A stretch of DNA of 64,000 bases from Patescibacteria group bacterium (lineage in GTDB: Bacteria > Patescibacteriota > Patescibacteriia > 2-01-FULL-39-33). Under the pieces are notes generated by a model that saw nothing but the letters and a program-made list of their open reading frames with translations, did no database searches and was not told the origin of the DNA. Positions 133 to 8,148 of this stretch are shown piece after piece (the first letter of the stretch is position 1; each line of letters begins with the position of its first letter). Location of the stretch: positions 273,685 to 337,684 of the forward strand of contig JBAZKF010000001.1 of assembly GCA_041650895.1 (NCBI GenBank), given 5' to 3'. Position numbers and translations under genes: made by a program.

Positions 133-699
133 CTATCGATCCAGATTGATTAAAATGTTGCCACCGCCGAACATACTGCCGTTATACTGGAATTGCAGGC
201 CGGTAGCTGTCTTTGGTACTTCGAAGCCAACCCATCCTGTGCGCTTGCTGTTGGCCAGAATTTGGCCGTCTAAGCCGAAGCCGGGGTTCTCCATGGCTTT
301 ATTGGTCACTGCCACCTGATAGCTGTTTTTATCACCGTCTCGGATAAACATCTGGCCGAGAGTGCTAACGCCTTGGCCGGTAGAGCCGGTATTCTCGATG
401 GTGATATTCAGATTAAGCCATTCGTTGCCAGCGGTGGGTTTGCTGTATTGGCCGCCTTGGGAGTATTCGACTTTATTGATAGTTACTATTGAGCTGCCCA
501 TCTTAACCTGATCTCCTACTTTGAATACTTCGTCTTGTTTGGCCGCCGTATTCTGGCTGCCTGAGTTATTAGTATTGCCCACTTTTTGCGGTTTGTTACC
601 GCTGGAGGCGATGGCGATAAATAGTATAATTACTACGATCAGCCAGAACCACCAGCGCTTATAAAACTTTTTCTTTGTTTTTTGATCTTTGTTTTCCAT
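133..699 (-). CDS. Membrane-anchored DUF4352-like beta-sandwich protein
   Basis: N-terminal KK-rich segment plus one TM helix (WWFWLIVVIILFIAIA), an Asn/Ser-rich linker, then a beta-rich domain with DUF4352-type pattern (VGDQVKMG..IVTINKVEY, LNLNITIENTG, FIRDGDKNSYQ). Confidence 0.55.
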   Translation of the reverse strand: MENKDQKTKKKFYKRWWFWLIVVIILFIAIASSGNKPQKVGNTNNSGSQNTAAKQDEVFKVGDQVKMGSSIVTINKVEYSQGGQYSKPTAGNEWLNLNITIENTGSTGQGVSTLGQMFIRDGDKNSYQVAVTNKAMENPGFGLDGQILANSKRTGWVGFEVPKTATGLQFQYNGSMFGGGNILINLDR

Positions 700-954
700 A
701 TTTTGCTATTGTTTATTTATAAGTTGAGTAGCTGGAGGTTTCGACTTTAGGTTTTTCAAATAAAAAACCCACCACCAGTTAGGGTCTTGCGACCCATATA
801 CGAGTTTCCCCGTATAACGCAACGAAGCGACCCTGATGATGGGGTCTTTATTTTCGTTGCGATTTTTGACCATGCCACTGGCCGAGGCCGGGGTTTAGGT
901 CTATTAGCTAAATTGTACTATTATCCTATCATTTTTTTCTAATTTTTGGAAGTC

Positions 955-1410
955 CTAAGGTTGGTTTTTAGCCATCAGGTCGGCAAGCGTTATATTTTGG
1001 CTTACATTCTGATTATATCCATATGGCTTTCCGCCGCGCATATAGTCCGGGTGGCGATGGCTCAGCCAAAAGCGGATTGACGGGCCGTCACCTTGAAAGG
1101 CCTTAACTAATAACAACTCTTCAACAAAATCCAGAATATAGCTTTGTACGCGCTCGATTTTGTTTTTGAATGTCACATCTTCGCGAAGCCATCGATAGTA
1201 GGTATCTCGGCTAATGCCGACATGCTGTGAGACGAGAGTGACGCTTGATCCGCCTGAACGCTCAAAAATCGTCAAAAATCGCTCTTTGGCCTGCCGCGTG
1301 CTTTCACGTTCGATTCTTGTTGTAACTTCGCTCATAGGGGCAACAGTGGCCCCAAGCGCCTCAATTTTTACCGGAAAACCCAGTAAATTGTCAGATTTGT
1401 CGGATTGCAT
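955..1410 (-). CDS. HTH DNA-binding protein (phage terminase-small-subunit-like or IS3 OrfA-like HTH)
   Basis: Motif 'SQHVGISRDTYYRWLRED' resembles HTH_Tnp/HTH_23-type helix-turn-helix ('..NTLYRWVKE' pattern); short C-terminal extension. Confidence 0.5.
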   Translation of the reverse strand: MQSDKSDNLLGFPVKIEALGATVAPMSEVTTRIERESTRQAKERFLTIFERSGGSSVTLVSQHVGISRDTYYRWLREDVTFKNKIERVQSYILDFVEELLLVKAFQGDGPSIRFWLSHRHPDYMRGGKPYGYNQNVSQNITLADLMAKNQP

Positions 1411-1513: not shown

Positions 1514-3595
1514 TTGATTAGGAATAAATCGATTATTATGAAATTAAATGGTACAAAAAAAGTTGAGTTAGAAAATTCAATTGGTCGACATTTTATCGGA
1601 TACACTCTGAATGCGAATGCTCCTCAAGGACAAAATTGTTTTTCCTGCAATTACGTGCTTGAAAAAGATTATCGAAAATTTTTATTAAAGATACTCTTGA
1701 AAAATAAAATCAAAGGTCAGGTTAATAAGGAGCAAGCACTTGCAGAGGTGTCAATTTACAAAACAGTAAGCAGTCCATATGTTTTGTCATTAGTTGATAC
1801 CAAAGAAGACGAAAATTATATTTTTTTATTATTTCCTCTATTAGAGGGAGGGAATCTCGCCGAATATATTAAATCATCGCCGCTAAGTGAAAATAATATT
1901 ATTGAAATTGGGGTCAGTATATTGCGAGGGATAGCTGATCTATGGCGGAAAAATATAGTTCATCAGGATCTCAAGCCGGAAAATATATTCATTCAATTAG
2001 ATGGCTCCGTAAAAATTCTTGATTTTGGATCTGCGCGATTTCAGATAAGTCCATTTCGCGGAGAAGCGCGAAGAAATTTTGCGTATTCATCTCCCGAACA
2101 GATTTTAGCGAGCAGGCCGGGTAATGCTGAACTTTTGCGCATGACTATTGATGATCGCATTGATGTATATGCAGTTGGCTTAATATTATATCGCTTGATT
2201 GAAGGTCGACATCCTTTTGAGGGCAGTGATTTCCCGGCTGAAGCCATTTTCGCTGGTAATGTGTTGCCGCCACTTAATAATGAGGGTGTATCTGATGGTT
2301 TGAAAAAAGTAGTTATGAGAATGTTAGATTCAAATCAACTAAATAGACCAAATGCACAGATCGCAATCAGTTATCTCGAAATGAAAAATGTAGTACCGCC
2401 AGAATTACAAAATGGTGGATTTTATTATTGTGCTATTAACGGGACGAATCGATTTATAAAAATGAAAGATCAAATGCCGGGATTGTTTGACGGAGTTGTT
2501 GTGGAAGCATCTCAGGTTCCTAAGGACGAGGCAAAAAGAATTAAAATTAGATATGGATTAAAAACGGTTTTAATTGATCCGCAAGCATATTTATTTCAAT
2601 TTCCGAAGCATCAGTCTAAAAAGTTTAAGGGACTATCTTATTATGAACATAAAAATTTATTTAGTGACATGCCACTACTTCTACAAAAAATTAAGGAAAG
2701 GGGCGGCGATATTATAAATTTTTTGAATGAAATAGTCGGACATCAACTTAATGCAGGAGCTACTGCAATTATCCCACCATTTTTATACATTGATGAGTTT
2801 AATAACGACGCATGGAGTATAGATCAAGAAATTACGTATCTGGCACTTGATATTCTTTCCAATTATCGGAATGTCAAGCCTTTTGTAAAGGGTGTCGCTA
2901 TGTCACAAGAAATTTTAACAAGTGACCGCTCACGCAATAAAATTTTAGAATATTTAACCTCGTTAAGTGATAGGGTTGAGGGGTATATTATTTTATTAGA
3001 TTCATCGCACTCTACCGTTGTGTCTGACGAACCGTGGCTTAAGGGAGCACAGGATTTATTCACAAAACTATTAAGTACTGGAAAATATGTTATTTGGAGC
3101 AAGGCTGATTTCTCTGGCATCGCTCTTGCTCCACTCGGGGTTAGTATAGCTACAGGAGAAATGCTAAAACAAAGACGCTTCAATGTTATTGAAGACAAGC
3201 AATCTCAAGCGCGTAAAGTACCTTGTTTTTATTTACCAGCAATGTTTGCGAGAGCGACATGGCCAGAAGCATTGAACATTCTTTCTGAGTATGAAAAATT
3301 TAATGATTTAGTGTGCCAAGATGCTTGTTGTTCGGCAGTAGATTTTTCTTCGCCGGCATACAGAAAGGAAGGCGATCTTGCGGGACACATGATGTTAGCC
3401 GTAGGCAAACAGTACGGCAGATATAAGGGTGGAAGTGGAAAAGTTGTTTTAGTTGAAGATATTAAAAAAGCGAAACAACATTATGAATCGCTAAAAAATC
3501 ATAGTAATTTACTCGTCAGAGAAGGTTTGAGAAAAAATATTAAGCCATCGTCCAGCTTATTTTTAGATAGCTGGTTGAATACTTTGAATAGATAA
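1514..3595 (+). CDS. Eukaryotic-like Ser/Thr protein kinase (about aa 20-295) fused to a roughly 400-aa alpha/beta C-terminal domain of unknown function, possibly TGT/DpdA-like with a Cys cluster
   Basis: Kinase motifs present: beta3 Lys (LLKILLK), alphaC Glu, catalytic loop 'HQDLKPENIF', 'DFGSAR', 'SPE', and 'DVYAVGLILYRLIEGRHPF'. C-terminal part shows alternating beta/alpha pattern (LIDPQAYLFQ, IIPPFLYIDE, YIILLDSSHS, YVIWSKADFSG) and 'CQDACCSAVDFSSPAYR...H'. Confidence 0.75.
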   Translation: MIRNKSIIMKLNGTKKVELENSIGRHFIGYTLNANAPQGQNCFSCNYVLEKDYRKFLLKILLKNKIKGQVNKEQALAEVSIYKTVSSPYVLSLVDTKEDENYIFLLFPLLEGGNLAEYIKSSPLSENNIIEIGVSILRGIADLWRKNIVHQDLKPENIFIQLDGSVKILDFGSARFQISPFRGEARRNFAYSSPEQILASRPGNAELLRMTIDDRIDVYAVGLILYRLIEGRHPFEGSDFPAEAIFAGNVLPPLNNEGVSDGLKKVVMRMLDSNQLNRPNAQIAISYLEMKNVVPPELQNGGFYYCAINGTNRFIKMKDQMPGLFDGVVVEASQVPKDEAKRIKIRYGLKTVLIDPQAYLFQFPKHQSKKFKGLSYYEHKNLFSDMPLLLQKIKERGGDIINFLNEIVGHQLNAGATAIIPPFLYIDEFNNDAWSIDQEITYLALDILSNYRNVKPFVKGVAMSQEILTSDRSRNKILEYLTSLSDRVEGYIILLDSSHSTVVSDEPWLKGAQDLFTKLLSTGKYVIWSKADFSGIALAPLGVSIATGEMLKQRRFNVIEDKQSQARKVPCFYLPAMFARATWPEALNILSEYEKFNDLVCQDACCSAVDFSSPAYRKEGDLAGHMMLAVGKQYGRYKGGSGKVVLVEDIKKAKQHYESLKNHSNLLVREGLRKNIKPSSSLFLDSWLNTLNR

Positions 3596-4063
3596 TGATC
3601 TTCGCCAAATTTTTTCTCGCAAATTAACTTCGTAAACTTTATTGCTACTAAAATTATTTGATGTCGGATGGTGTAAAACTTTTATTGTGTTTTCATCAAA
3701 AACAATTAAACCTACGTTATGTTTTTTGAATAAACTAATGTCAGCATTTTTCGCATAATCTTTATATAATGCAAGATAACTTTTTTCGGCAAATGAACAG
3801 TACCTCCATGCTTGATATAATCCCTGTTTCCAATCAGATATTTTAACTTCAATAGCAATAAATTTAGTTTGTTTTGTATTAAAGTCGTTCTGCACCATTT
3901 TTTGTGGAAAAGACGAGATTAAAATATCGGCAATAAATGAATTATTGCCAACCTCACGCCTCATCTCAATGTTTTTTCCCCTTCTCGAACGTATAATTTT
4001 TGTAATGCCACCCTCTTGCAGTGTTTTTATTAACTGCGATGTTAGTACGTATTCACGTAACAT
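3563..4063 (-). CDS. PD-(D/E)XK (restriction-endonuclease-fold) nuclease-like protein
   Basis: Core motifs 'FIADILIS' (Asp) ... 'FIAIEVKIS' (E-x-K) with spacing typical of PD-(D/E)XK. Converges on the kinase gene and overlaps its 3' end by 33 nt. Confidence 0.45.
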   Translation of the reverse strand: MLREYVLTSQLIKTLQEGGITKIIRSRRGKNIEMRREVGNNSFIADILISSFPQKMVQNDFNTKQTKFIAIEVKISDWKQGLYQAWRYCSFAEKSYLALYKDYAKNADISLFKKHNVGLIVFDENTIKVLHHPTSNNFSSNKVYEVNLREKIWRRSLSIQSIQPAI

Positions 4064-4199
4064 ATATATTGTTTATTTTATTATATCATTTTTTTTGACG
4101 CAGGTAAAAAGATGTTTTCCACAATTAAAATTTCCCTTGAATATGGCGAATTTATTGACTATATATACGTTTTCACCTCGTACAGAATGCGGAACTCTT

Positions 4200-5102
4200 T
4201 TACAAATCAATTAGTGGATGCTTGGTTATTTGTGCCCTCAGGTGCTCGATATTGGCCGCCAAGTATATCGTCGTGGTCTTAATGTCGCTATGGCCCATCA
4301 TCTTTGCCAGTGAATAAATATCACAGCCGCCCTCCAGCATCAGTGTGGCAAACGTATGGCGTAGCTTGTGAATGGTGAAATTAATGCCTGAGGCCTCCTT
4401 GATACGGTCGACCAATCTCTTGAGGCCACTGGCCGTAAACCCGCCGTTTATAAACAGCGAGGTGAAAAATTCCGGGCAGGTTTTGTTCAGTTTTCGCCGC
4501 TCTGCGAGATACTTGTTTAATGTCTCCGCTAATTTGTAATTGATCGGCACCACCCTGTCCTTACTCCCCTTGCCCTGTCGGATAAATATCGACAAGTTCT
4601 CGATATCCACGTCAGTGAACTTCAGGTTTAGCAACTCCTTTTTTCGCAAGCCGGCCATAATAAACGTCGAGAAAATCGCATAATTGCGGTAACGCAGGAA
4701 TTTTTCCTTGTAAGGATAGTTATCTATCACTTCGAGAATTTTCATTGCTTCTTGCTTGGTCAGCTTCGGTGGCAATCGTTTTTCCAATTTCGGCGTCTCG
4801 ATGTCATCAATCGGATTGCCGGTCATATACCCCTCTTTGACGCACCAGCGGAAGAACACGGCCAGCGACTTGTGATAGCAGATGAAAGTGTTAGTCGTCC
4901 ATTTCTGCTGGGTACGGCCGTGATAAAACAAATTACGGACGTTTTCCTGACTGACCTGCTCAATATCCGTAATGTCGGATAATCTGGCGTAATAGTTGAT
5001 CACCTGCCGGTAGCGCTTGATCGTCGGCTGGGAAAACCCCTTGATGAACTTTGAATAATCAAAGAACTTTTGCGATAAAATTTGTATAGTCATAAAAAAC
5101 AC
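4200..5102 (-). CDS. Tyrosine site-specific recombinase / phage-type integrase
   Basis: C-terminal catalytic signature 'HKLRHTFATLMLEGGCDIYSLAKMMGHSDIKTTTIYL' (R..H-x-x-R...Y), N-terminal SAM-like core-binding domain. Immediately adjacent to the tRNA 3' end. Confidence 0.9.
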   Translation of the reverse strand: MFFMTIQILSQKFFDYSKFIKGFSQPTIKRYRQVINYYARLSDITDIEQVSQENVRNLFYHGRTQQKWTTNTFICYHKSLAVFFRWCVKEGYMTGNPIDDIETPKLEKRLPPKLTKQEAMKILEVIDNYPYKEKFLRYRNYAIFSTFIMAGLRKKELLNLKFTDVDIENLSIFIRQGKGSKDRVVPINYKLAETLNKYLAERRKLNKTCPEFFTSLFINGGFTASGLKRLVDRIKEASGINFTIHKLRHTFATLMLEGGCDIYSLAKMMGHSDIKTTTIYLAANIEHLRAQITKHPLIDL

Positions 5103-5133
5103 TGCGGTTTTATTGCAGTGTTTTCCATATTTG

Positions 5134-5397
5134 AGCCGTTGTGCGGATTCGAACCGCAGACCTACTCCTTCACTTATACCTCCATTTCAAAATTATATTG
5201 GAGGGTTAGACTGTATATCAAGCGTGGCAAATTATGCTTTAGCTTCCCTTGTCAGTCGTTCGGGCGATCGCTCGCCACGGTCTTAACCATTTCTGGCCTT
5301 TAACCGTAATTCGGGATTCAACGATTAGTTTCCTAATCGAGGGGCAAAACCTGTTCGGTTCACCATGGAGTTGCTCTACCAACTGAGCTACAACGGC
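5134..5397 (-). tRNA. tRNA-Thr (anticodon GGU) interrupted by an intervening sequence of about 191 nt in the anticodon loop (possible group I intron). Exons about 5360-5397 and 5134-5168
   Basis: Minus-strand 5' exon GCCGTTG-TA-GCTC-AGTTGGTA-GAGC-A-ACTCC-ATGGTGA. 3' exon GGAGT-AGGTC-TGCGG-TTCGAAT-CCGCA-CAACGGC-T. Anticodon stem ACTCC/GGAGT and acceptor GCCGTTG/CAACGGC pair perfectly only when the two halves are joined. CCA is not encoded. Confidence 0.6.
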
Positions 5398-5526: not shown

Positions 5527-5564
5527 TTACCATGGATGCGCTCTACCAACTGAGCTACAACGGC
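5527..5564 (-). pseudogene. Orphan tRNA 5' half (acceptor + D-arm + anticodon stem-loop, anticodon GGU) with no matching 3' half
   Basis: GCCGTTGTAGCTCAGTTGGTAGAGC-G-CATCC-ATGGTAA matches the acceptor/D-arm of the neighbouring tRNA-Thr. The required GGATG, T-arm and CAACGGC are absent in the following 130 nt. Confidence 0.4.
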
Positions 5565-5594
5565 AAAAACAACAAAACTATTTTAACACACCTC

Positions 5595-6516: not shown

Positions 6517-7383
6517 TCATCGCCCGCTACCGAATAATTTAATTAAGCGTTCCGTTTCGGCGGCAACGGCGTCAATTGACGGTTTTAGAATTTGACGCGG
6601 ATCATAATGATTTTTTGGCGTGTCTTTGATTGTTCGCCTTAACTCTTGAGTGAAAGCGCGACGCAAATCCGTATCAATATTGACGATCCGGACGCCGAAT
6701 TTAGCGGCTGAGCGCAAGTCGCCATCAGCCAAACCGGAAGCGCCATGAAGCACTAACGGCGTCTGCGGAATCTCCTGCTGGATTTTCTTCAGCCGAGGAA
6801 AATCAATCTTTTCTTTACCCCGGTAATAGCCGTGCATAGTACCGACAGAAACCGCCAAGGTATCCACGCCGGTACGGCGGATAAACTCCTTCACCTTAGC
6901 CGGATCGGTCATATAGGTGTTGGGATCCTTGGGCACATTCTTAAGTACCGTACCTTCTTTGCCCAGCATTGCTCCCAACTCAGCCTGCGCCCAAACGCCA
7001 TGGCTATGGGCAAAAACCGCCGCTTTCTTGGTTAAAGCGACATTCTGCTCAAATGGTAAATCCGAACCGTCAATGTGGACGGAAGAAAATCCCGCTTTAA
7101 CACAATCGACTACAACTTTAAAACTATGACCATGATCCAAGTGAATAGCAATGGGTATTCTCTTGCCATCGGTGGTAGCAATAATCTTAATCAATTCCGT
7201 GATATTGGTCAAGCCGGCATATTTAATGGCGCTTTCCGAAACTTGAACGATCACTGGAGACTTTCGCGCCACCGCGCCGCGGATAATACCCAGTGTTACT
7301 TCTAAATTAGAGGTGTTAAAAGCGCCCAAGGCATATTTGCCTTGTTGCGCACCGTTAATAATTTTTTTGATATGAACTATCAT
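6517..7383 (-). CDS. fba: Class II fructose-bisphosphate aldolase
   Basis: Motifs 'IAIHLDHGHS', 'HGASG', and an N-terminal 'YALGAFN' typical of FbaA/TBP aldolase class II. Confidence 0.9.
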   Translation of the reverse strand: MIVHIKKIINGAQQGKYALGAFNTSNLEVTLGIIRGAVARKSPVIVQVSESAIKYAGLTNITELIKIIATTDGKRIPIAIHLDHGHSFKVVVDCVKAGFSSVHIDGSDLPFEQNVALTKKAAVFAHSHGVWAQAELGAMLGKEGTVLKNVPKDPNTYMTDPAKVKEFIRRTGVDTLAVSVGTMHGYYRGKEKIDFPRLKKIQQEIPQTPLVLHGASGLADGDLRSAAKFGVRIVNIDTDLRRAFTQELRRTIKDTPKNHYDPRQILKPSIDAVAAETERLIKLFGSGR

Positions 7384-7389
7384 AAATTT

Positions 7390-8148
7390 TTAACAAATTT
7401 TTATTATAGAAGAAAACTCCTTTATTTTCAAACTCGCTCCACCAACTAAGAAGCCGGCGAAATGATCCAATGGCACAAAATCTCCGGCGTTGGACGAATC
7501 CACTGAACCGCCGTAAATAATGCGGACATTGGACTTGGCGATAGCCATCGGCATATTGTCAATAATCTGCTGCCAAATAATACGAAAAGCCTCTTCAGCC
7601 TCGGCCGGTTCAATCGCCTGGCCCAAACCTATAACCCAAACCGGTTCATAAGCAACCACCAGATGCTCGCTAGCCAGAAAATCAACGCCTTGCAAAGCGG
7701 ACTGAACTTGGCGCAACAAGACATTACCGGTCTGCCCTTCGCGACGCTCCTCATAAGTTTCCCCCACGCACAAAATCGGTGTTAACCCGGCTGAGAGAGC
7801 GGCCTTAAGCTTGAGATGGACCATTTCATCAGTCTCACCTAAATTCTGCCGCCTTTCCGAATGGCCGACAATAGCATAACGGCAACCGGCTTCACGCAAA
7901 AATCTGGGCGATTCGCAACCCGTAAAAGACCCCCGGTCCTCCCAAAAAATATCCTGGGCGCTCAAAGCTATTTCTTCTTTTTTAACCGTTTCCGCTACTA
8001 AAGTCAAAGCGGAGATAGACGGTGCCAAAACCACGTCCCTTTCTTCCAGCACATCATTGTTCAAAGCCTTAGCCAAATCATGAGCCAACTCGGCCGAAGC
8101 AATCGGACTTAGATTCATTTTCCAATTGGCAATGATTATTTTACGCAT
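7390..8148 (-). CDS. tpiA: Triosephosphate isomerase
   Basis: 'IIANWKMN', 'IVGHSERR', 'AYEPVWVIG', 'IYGGSV' signature motifs. Confidence 0.92.
   Translation of the reverse strand: MRKIIIANWKMNLSPIASAELAHDLAKALNNDVLEERDVVLAPSISALTLVAETVKKEEIALSAQDIFWEDRGSFTGCESPRFLREAGCRYAIVGHSERRQNLGETDEMVHLKLKAALSAGLTPILCVGETYEERREGQTGNVLLRQVQSALQGVDFLASEHLVVAYEPVWVIGLGQAIEPAEAEEAFRIIWQQIIDNMPMAIAKSNVRIIYGGSVDSSNAGDFVPLDHFAGFLVGGASLKIKEFSSIIKIC

Follow-up and report, generated by a model that had tools for sequence, protein, structure and literature searches.

A Ser/Thr kinase fused to a divergent tRNA-guanine transglycosylase-like domain and paired with a PD-(D/E)xK-like gene in Patescibacteria

The kinase fusion and its convergent partner

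The 64,000-nucleotide (nt) stretch analysed here (the window), which comes from a Patescibacteria group bacterium (GenBank assembly GCA_041650895.1, contig JBAZKF010000001.1, positions 273,685 to 337,684), contains two genes that converge on each other: one encodes a Ser/Thr protein kinase fused to a C-terminal domain that resembles tRNA-guanine transglycosylases (TGTs), the other a small PD-(D/E)xK-like protein. The fusion gene is a single open reading frame (ORF) on the plus strand (1514..3595) with 693 codons when read from a TTG at 1514, and a promoter-like TTGACA-17-TAGAAT lies upstream of it at 1458-1486. Relatives of the fusion start at the position of residue 9 (MKLxG; MKLNG in the window) and measure 685-686 amino acids (aa), which makes the ATG at 1538 a likelier start than the TTG; the true product probably has 685 aa.

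The N-terminal half is a Hanks-type Ser/Thr protein kinase domain (1658..2380, plus strand; residues 49-289), recognized by the Pfam Pkinase model (PF00069) on residues 49-284 with E=8e-36 and 124 bits against a cut-off of 31.7. An initial annotation of this DNA had credited the domain with a complete set of motifs (beta3 Lys, HQDLKPEN, DFG, SPE), and all of them are indeed present and invariant in the family: K59 (the beta3 Lys), E78 (the alphaC Glu), H150-Q-D152-L-K154-P-E-N157, D170-F-G and S-P-E195 are found in 25/25 fused proteins. The Gly-rich loop is degenerate (QGQNCFS). Judged by these residues, the kinase domain appears catalytically competent. The only label that family members carry in RefSeq is ‘serine/threonine-protein kinase’.

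The partner gene (3563..4063, minus strand) encodes 166 aa, and its 3' end overlaps that of the fusion gene by 33 nt (3563..3595). A partner of 151-235 aa is paired with the fusion at every locus examined, namely in the window and at the loci that we number L001, L003-6, L007, L008, L009/10, L011, L025, L026, L027, L028, L033 and L034, and a convergent 3' overlap of 4-36 nt is found in 11 of 13 loci. The identities of the two proteins also fall in step, with fusion/partner values of 65/71, 47/47, 38/46, 25/34 and 23/40 %. The partner family comprises 95 clusters without any Pfam domain. Its members share a layout of an hhhD strand, an hhhExK motif whose E72 and K74 are invariant among 26 diverse members, and a helix with W, G, Y and Q; the window protein shows D46, E72-V-K74 and W78, G81, Y83 and Q84. 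The hhhD...hhhExK arrangement and the conserved Q/Y helix resemble the layout of the PD-(D/E)xK restriction-endonuclease-like fold, although no curated threshold is reached: the Pfam matches, all below threshold, lean towards nucleases (HSDR_N_2, PDDEXK_13, PDDEXK_3, MTES_1575, CoiA_C), and a hidden Markov model (HMM) of the partner family finds nothing in the PDB. In long forms of the partner, ~70 aa are inserted that weakly match winged-helix domains.

Kinship of the C-terminal domain with transglycosylases

What is the domain to which the kinase is fused? Comparison of the C-terminal ~400 residues with Pfam, NCBIfam, PADLOC, PHROGs and the sequences of the PDB gave no match, and when the domain and nine of its distant relatives were compared with Pfam and NCBIfam, including PF01702 and the Tgt and DpdA models, there was no hit even at E<=1. 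Predicted structure was more informative. A first AlphaFold model, built from 16 close homologues, was too weak in its second half (predicted local distance difference test score, pLDDT, 68) and was replaced by one built from 28 diverse sequences, which reached a pLDDT of 93.3 and a predicted template modelling score (pTM) of 0.92. In this model residues ~300-693 (2411..3592, plus strand) form eight beta/alpha units followed by a beta-hairpin, a Cys loop and a C-terminal helical bundle that carries H625 on its first helix. The closest structural neighbours of the barrel are TGT-family proteins and not generic TIM barrels, the best match being a bacterial tRNA-guanine transglycosylase. The TIM-like barrel that the initial annotation had proposed from a repeating strand/helix pattern is thus recovered as a (beta/alpha)8 barrel. 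Four of the segments it had named are strands of the model (VLIDP, 58-62; IIPPFLY, 126-132; GYIILLD, 197-203; YVIWS, 232-236, in model residue numbers), while the fifth, CFYL (model residues 278-281), sits in the hairpin after the barrel and is no barrel strand.

Profile comparisons run parallel to the fold. Aligned by hhalign with Escherichia coli (Ec) Tgt, Zymomonas mobilis (Zm) TGT and a seven-member profile of phage DpdA, the family profile reached E-values of 0.05-0.3 at best, and the top PDB match of the family HMM was ArcTGT with a non-significant E=0.49, its register falling exactly on the CSCPVC...H zinc ligands. The local hhalign alignments, not significant singly, keep the order of the fold elements: VLIDPQAYL is matched with ILTDSGGFQ of Tgt and also with FLDSGAFS of phage DpdA, HQLNAGATAII..PPF with EIQYDLGSDIVM(IFDEC)TPY, FVKGVAMSQ with LFGIIQGSV, and VEGYIILLD with FDGYAVGGL.

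The family-defining catalytic residues of TGT-fold enzymes are an Asp on beta3 (D102 in Zm TGT, D95 in DpdA), a base-reading Asp on beta4 (D156/D130) and a nucleophile on beta8 (D280/D256) (10.1101/2025.04.06.647259; PMC10164549). We read conservation from an alignment of 40 C-terminal domains whose identity reaches below 20%. Near-universal in it are D355 (39/40) and P356 (40/40), together with Y359, Q411, P422, C601, C606, H625 and W687. D355 and P356 belong to the motif LIDPQAYLFQ (residues 353-362; 2570..2599, plus strand), where they take the place of D102-S103 in the DSGGFQ motif of TGT and of the LDSGAF motif of DpdA, and hhalign, in alignments that are non-significant singly, pairs D355 with Ec Tgt D89 (equivalent to Zm D102) and with the DSGAF of phage 9g DpdA. 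Because position, conservation and fold agree, D355 can be assigned as the counterpart of the Asp that closes beta3 and serves as general acid/base (Zm D102, DpdA D95, Cap10 D73). The initial annotation had looked for an echo of DSGGFQ in LLDSSHS; this segment is ruled out, as it lies on beta6 and aligns with the GYAVGGLAVGE region of TGT, and LIDPQAYLFQ fills the role instead.

A second element of continuity is the predicted structural zinc site, C601-x3-C605-C606-x18-H625 (3314..3388, plus strand), with its His on the helix that directly follows the Cys loop. The clade of the window keeps C601, C605, C606 and H625 without exception, well beyond chance, and distant relatives show C601-x-C603-x2-C606...H625 in the same columns, which is the textbook zinc signature of TGT and DpdA, CXCX2CX22-25H (CXCX2CX22H in DpdA; PMC10164549). 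The family HMM is likewise in register with the ArcTGT zinc ligands C279, C281, C284 and H307. The likeness of the Cys cluster to the TGT/DpdA zinc subdomain, first noticed as a loose resemblance in the initial annotation, thereby gains a clean CxCxxC...H in distant members, and homology of the cluster to the TGT zinc site is supported. The cluster is lost in the fusion of Kocuria rosea and in the stand-alone relatives P0028, P0037, P0042 and P0043.

Several results weigh against this assignment, and above all against transglycosylase chemistry. No sequence method was significant against TGT or DpdA; the homology therefore rests on predicted structure and motif continuity. The base-reading Asp of beta4 (Zm D156, DpdA D130, Cap10 D122) is absent, with P422-[FY] in its place: the FDEC segment of TGT falls opposite a gap next to this invariant pair in the hhalign alignments, and residues 416-426 contain no conserved acid in any clade of the 40-sequence alignment. 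Nor is any acid conserved superfamily-wide at the position of the beta8 nucleophile (D280; DpdA D256, Cap10 D248), and segment-restricted hhalign runs, global and local, did not place a D280 counterpart. The close and middle clades have G548-E549 in common (acid in 20/20) and the distant ones do not, which leaves E549 as a candidate second carboxylate for the clade of the window. Without a D156-type Asp and a conserved D280 acid, the domain could be non-catalytic like QTRT2, a non-catalytic protein of the TGT family. Alignment of the catalytic Asp residues and the zinc ligands thus gives a divided answer, with the D102-type Asp and the zinc site kept, the D156-type Asp missing and the D280-type acid not clearly conserved.

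When the window and 20 loci (246 kb in all) were searched by tblastn with Ec Tgt and QueA and with FolE, QueD, QueE, Gat-QueC and DpdA of phage 9g, no match reached E<=1e-2. From the pocket residues and the lack of preQ0 and tgt genes at these loci, we regard catalysis by the C-terminal domain as possible but unproven; if it occurs, its base specificity must, on these residues, differ from that of the guanine/preQ TGTs. The kinase-transglycosylase fusion suspected in the initial annotation accordingly stands as fold-level homology, while the chemistry in its name is unproven.

The differences from characterized TGT-fold systems are considerable. Compared with bacterial Tgt (Z. mobilis 3UNT/1Q2R; PF01702), the domain has 7% identity and no Pfam match, D-P instead of D-S in the acid/base motif, no D156 and no clear D280, and a zinc spacing of Cx3CCx18H in the window clade instead of CxCx2Cx25H; unlike Tgt, it shares a polypeptide with a kinase, has a nuclease-like gene for a partner and is mobile, with no queuosine pathway genes nearby. 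From DpdA (7UI4; PMC10164549) it differs in lacking demonstrable equivalents of D130 and D256, and from the Dpd system in its surroundings: neither dpdB, dpdC nor preQ0 genes (folE, queD, queE, queC) occur in the window and the 20 loci, and the small PD-(D/E)xK-like partner stands where Dpd has its DpdD-K machinery. Cap10 of the type IV cyclic-oligonucleotide-based antiphage signalling system (CBASS; 9NTN; 10.1101/2025.04.06.647259) is without a zinc site, keeps D73/S74, D122, K154 and the catalytic D248, and acts with the QueC-like Cap9 and a CD-NTase, none of which is present here. Since the domain matches no curated sequence model, has no D156-type Asp and offers no clearly conserved nucleophile, we file it as a new divergent branch, neither TGT nor DpdA, within a structural superfamily in which its membership is supported by the predicted fold.

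Distribution and mobile setting

The family is rare. A word-indexed search of the C-terminal part against 5.8 billion proteins returned 15 clusters, nearly all of them kinase fusions of ~686 aa and one of them named Candidatus Paceibacter; an exhaustive phmmer search over 1.84 billion representatives gave 31 at E<=1e-3. Homologues of the C-terminal domain could thus be found both fused and by itself: the relatives are either ~680-aa kinase fusions, down to ~22% identity, or ~400-aa stand-alone proteins with neither kinase nor Pfam domain. Their spread is patchy, over Patescibacteria, Bacillota, Actinomycetota and one Bacteroidota metagenome-assembled genome (MAG). The scan of GTDB genomes contributed one locus and that of JGI metagenomes five, and locus statistics come from ~15 places. 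An origin in phages was considered and is not supported, as neither IMG/VR viral contigs nor GenBank phages held relatives of the fusion or the partner, and a fold search of BFVD gave no significant match. Neither a kinase-TGT fusion nor the gene pair turned up in the full-text literature that could be searched. The protein, which the initial annotation had thought would be unprecedented if real, is in this sense undescribed, and yet its family is not unique to the source genome.

A 14-nt direct repeat, TGTTTTCCATATTT, flanks the pair in the window, and its two exact copies are candidate attachment (att) sites: the left copy (690..703, plus strand) overlaps the start codon of a DUF4352 gene, and the right copy (5119..5132, plus strand) abuts the 3' end of a tRNA gene. 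The repeats bracket four genes, namely the fusion, its partner, a tyrosine recombinase of the XerC/D-like integrase type (4200..5102, minus strand; Pfam Phage_integrase E=1e-31, with NCBIfam XerA, XerD and XerC below their cut-offs) and a helix-turn-helix (HTH) protein of 151 aa (955..1410, minus strand), and between the repeats the GC content falls to 0.36-0.41. The recombinase, the repeats, the abutment on the tRNA gene and the GC dip together suggest an integrated island of ~4.4 kb. Its probable integration target is the tRNA gene (5133..5397, minus strand), which contains an intron of ~174 nt in or near the anticodon loop; the island-free junction between tRNA and DUF4352 gene would be expected to read ..CAACGGCTCAAATATGGAAAACAAAGATC... 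This tRNA gene is missed by ARAGORN in its default run and called tRNA-Ser(tga) in intron mode, whereas a reading of the loop suggests Thr(GGU), so that its identity is uncertain; an Rfam scan of the region gave no tRNA or group I intron match. An orphan 37-nt copy of the 5' half of the tRNA, 92% identical, lies 167 nt upstream of it (5529-5565, minus strand), possibly left behind when an earlier integration or rearrangement took place.

The HTH protein has Pfam HTH matches, a weak likeness to transposase HTH domains and a match to a PHROG terminase small subunit (E=1e-6). We considered it as a conserved third component and rejected it, since tblastn found no homologue in the other loci. At L009, a Terminase_2-like gene of 134 aa occupies the same place relative to the kinase, with no detectable sequence similarity to the HTH gene of the window.

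Mobile DNA surrounds the pair elsewhere as well. Serine recombinases lie near it in L003, L009 and L025, and near a kinase-less relative in L029; a complete Type I restriction-modification locus (HsdR, an AAA_13 protein and HsdM) adjoins it at L028 (1-5791), which is a defence-island context, and HNH and ParB genes are its neighbours at L027. In two cultured bacteria, Priestia megaterium CACC119 and Kocuria rosea strain 13, the pair resides on mobilizable plasmids. The P. megaterium kinase (WP_322552809.1, on plasmid p6; C-domain HMM E=5.6e-66) has a canonical CNCRHC...H motif and is accompanied by the partner WP_322552810.1; the K. rosea kinase is WP_290468116.1 (C-domain HMM E=5.9e-33). On the K. 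rosea plasmid NZ_CP127859.1 (L034 ~4554-5313), the partner ORF (LIAVELKLRDWRRGIAQAGRY...) is missing from the annotated genes of the record. Outside the island, the segment 6517-12449 of the window is syntenic with 13229-18061 of L001 (fba/DeoC-like, tpiA, S11 peptidase, scpB, scpA and a YbaK-like tRNA-editing gene), and the kinase pair is placed differently relative to these housekeeping genes in the two, consistent with independent insertion or rearrangement.

We are highly confident of the identity of the protein: a competent Hanks-type kinase joined to a TGT-superfamily barrel with its beta-hairpin and a Cys3-His zinc subdomain, obligately paired with a PD-(D/E)xK-like gene and carried as cargo of mobile DNA.

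A possible role in genetic conflict

The kinase-less relatives are instructive as to which parts of the system belong together. At L029 (GCA_043820855.1), a PIN-domain gene (7194-7634) lies between a stand-alone TGT-like gene and a partner (HMM match E=1.8e-24) that converges on the PIN gene, and at L031 and L032 the partner lies directly upstream of the TGT-like gene on the same strand (HMM E~1e-18). The partner is thus retained where no kinase is fused, so that barrel and nuclease-like partner make up the conserved core, while kinase and PIN domain have the look of output modules that can replace each other. L031 also has, ~1.2 kb downstream of its TGT-like and partner genes, an MNT-HEPN (nucleotidyltransferase/HEPN) toxin-antitoxin pair (3832-4732).

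The barrel and the kinase have counterparts in phage defence. TGT-fold proteins serve in the Dpd restriction-modification system and in type IV CBASS (PMC10164549; 10.1101/2025.04.06.647259). The kinase of the window matches PADLOC mad6 (E=7.5e-44) and PD-T4-6 (E=4e-32) and NCBIfam MAD6 (E=5e-22, though at 78 bits against a cut-off of 460); its likeness to PD-T4-6, MADS MAD6 and BREX PglW is confined to the kinase domain (~50-289). Ser/Thr kinases serve in PD-T4-6, MADS and BREX defence.

As to substrate, chemistry, direction of signalling and a part in defence, we infer the following. The core of TGT-like barrel and nuclease-like partner would act on nucleic acid, probably DNA. A TGT-type pocket, with D355 in the position of the general acid/base, would capture a flipped-out base, which the barrel would sense, or else cleave or exchange. 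The partner would supply DNA binding, through the winged-helix insert in the long forms, and cleavage. The fused kinase would be the output: by phosphorylating the partner, or other targets in the cell, it would set off or license the response. In kinase-less relatives the PIN RNase gene would fill this place. The convergent overlapping transcripts probably balance the expression of the two genes. That the pair is a defence or conflict cassette working in this way is the likeliest of the readings considered here, but a tentative proposal to which we give slightly less than an even chance; the explanation as a whole, identity and mechanism together, we hold to be about evenly balanced between right and wrong. 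A bolder version, in which two genes make up a self-contained immune system, a kinase-licensed TGT-fold enzyme (with its kinase in the part that the ATPase DpdB plays for DpdA) excising or exchanging DNA bases and the partner cleaving, seems unlikely to us; its chemistry would either mark self DNA without the 7-deazaguanine pathway or attack the (modified) DNA of an invader.

The proposed role in defence has to reckon with evidence of the opposite kind. It is argued from guilt by association at ~15 loci, and at L001 the pair lies among housekeeping genes (ribosomal and tRNA-synthetase genes) with no recombinase in view. The partner can be called PD-(D/E)xK-like, with its putative nuclease nature drawn from the motif and from sub-threshold Pfam matches. 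The models of PADLOC-DB v2, which include PD-T4-6, MADS, Mokosh and BREX, cover neither the C-terminal domain nor the partner, and the integrase and HTH protein are also without a match there.

How do other explanations compare? One is a restriction-modification-like ‘Dpd-lite’, in which a true DNA transglycosylase would mark host DNA as self by exchanging one of its bases and the PD-(D/E)xK partner would restrict unmarked DNA, the kinase providing an ATP-dependent step, as DpdB does for DpdA, or regulating the enzyme. We consider this improbable: no preQ0/queuosine pathway gene and no canonical tgt was detected in the 246 kb of the window and related loci, the D156-type Asp is absent, distant clades without the nucleophile acid still keep the partner, a PIN RNase in the kinase's place suits an effector better than an ATP motor, and the kinase motifs are those of a phosphotransferase and not of an ATPase motor. 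Another is a non-catalytic, QTRT2-like barrel that would have lost its chemistry and would bind a nucleobase, a nucleotide, tRNA or modified phage DNA and thereby switch on the kinase, following a Stk2-like abortive-infection logic with the partner as substrate or effector. Here, however, the D102-type Asp in 39/40 proteins and the polar strand-end residues kept by the clade (Q357, E428, K459, D/E496, H499, D532 and E549) are more than ligand binding usually needs, and the existence of kinase-less versions indicates a role of the barrel that is independent of kinase regulation; such a sensor is, in our estimate, also unlikely.

Instead of phage defence, the compact two-gene unit on plasmids and integrative islands could serve addiction, as a toxin-antitoxin-like module that stabilizes its mobile element, the partner being a toxin restrained by phosphorylation or by antisense transcription that arises at the convergent fusion gene. 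The convergent 3' overlap in 11/13 loci would permit antisense control, and toxin-antitoxin genes are neighbours in L031 (MNT/HEPN) and L029 (PIN). However, a two-domain enzyme of 685 aa is far above the usual size of an antitoxin, and the conserved TGT-fold pocket and zinc site are left unexplained; we regard this as very unlikely, bearing in mind that defence and addiction are not mutually exclusive. Least credible of all, and given almost no weight by us, is a housekeeping tRNA-modifying enzyme of bacteria of the candidate phyla radiation (CPR) under the control of its fused kinase. It would agree with the best structural match, a bacterial tRNA-guanine transglycosylase, and with the position of the L001 pair among ribosomal and tRNA-synthetase genes, but not with the patchy spread over four groups on plasmids and islands, the rarity of the family (31 representatives in 1.84 billion), the obligate link to a nuclease-like partner, or the absence of the base-reading D156 and of a Pfam TGT signature.

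Finally, we would like to place the kinase/TGT-like family into the context of the TGT fold. Enzymes of this fold were long held to be specific for tRNA. This view was widened twice in the field of phage-host conflict, by DpdA, whose substrate is DNA, and by Cap10, whose substrate is a protein. The family described here is a further, previously unrecognized branch that is seen by no domain database. Mobile DNA carries it together with a nuclease-like partner and with a kinase or, in its place, a PIN RNase. The linkage of the TGT-like domain to the PD-(D/E)xK-like partner, which extends to the kinase-less relatives, is the new finding at the level of the system. The family also raises the question of what a TGT pocket does with an acid/base Asp and a zinc site but without the Asp that reads guanine. 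As the same pair is carried on plasmids of the cultivable P. megaterium and K. rosea, our hypothesis is directly testable. If the reading as a base-exchanging immune system were true, the family would be a fourth functional branch of TGTs, besides those acting on tRNA, on DNA (DpdA) and on protein (Cap10), and the reduced CPR genomes would possess a defence system of their own. For the Patescibacteria, whose immune repertoire is poorly known, the pair offers a concrete candidate for a defence module.

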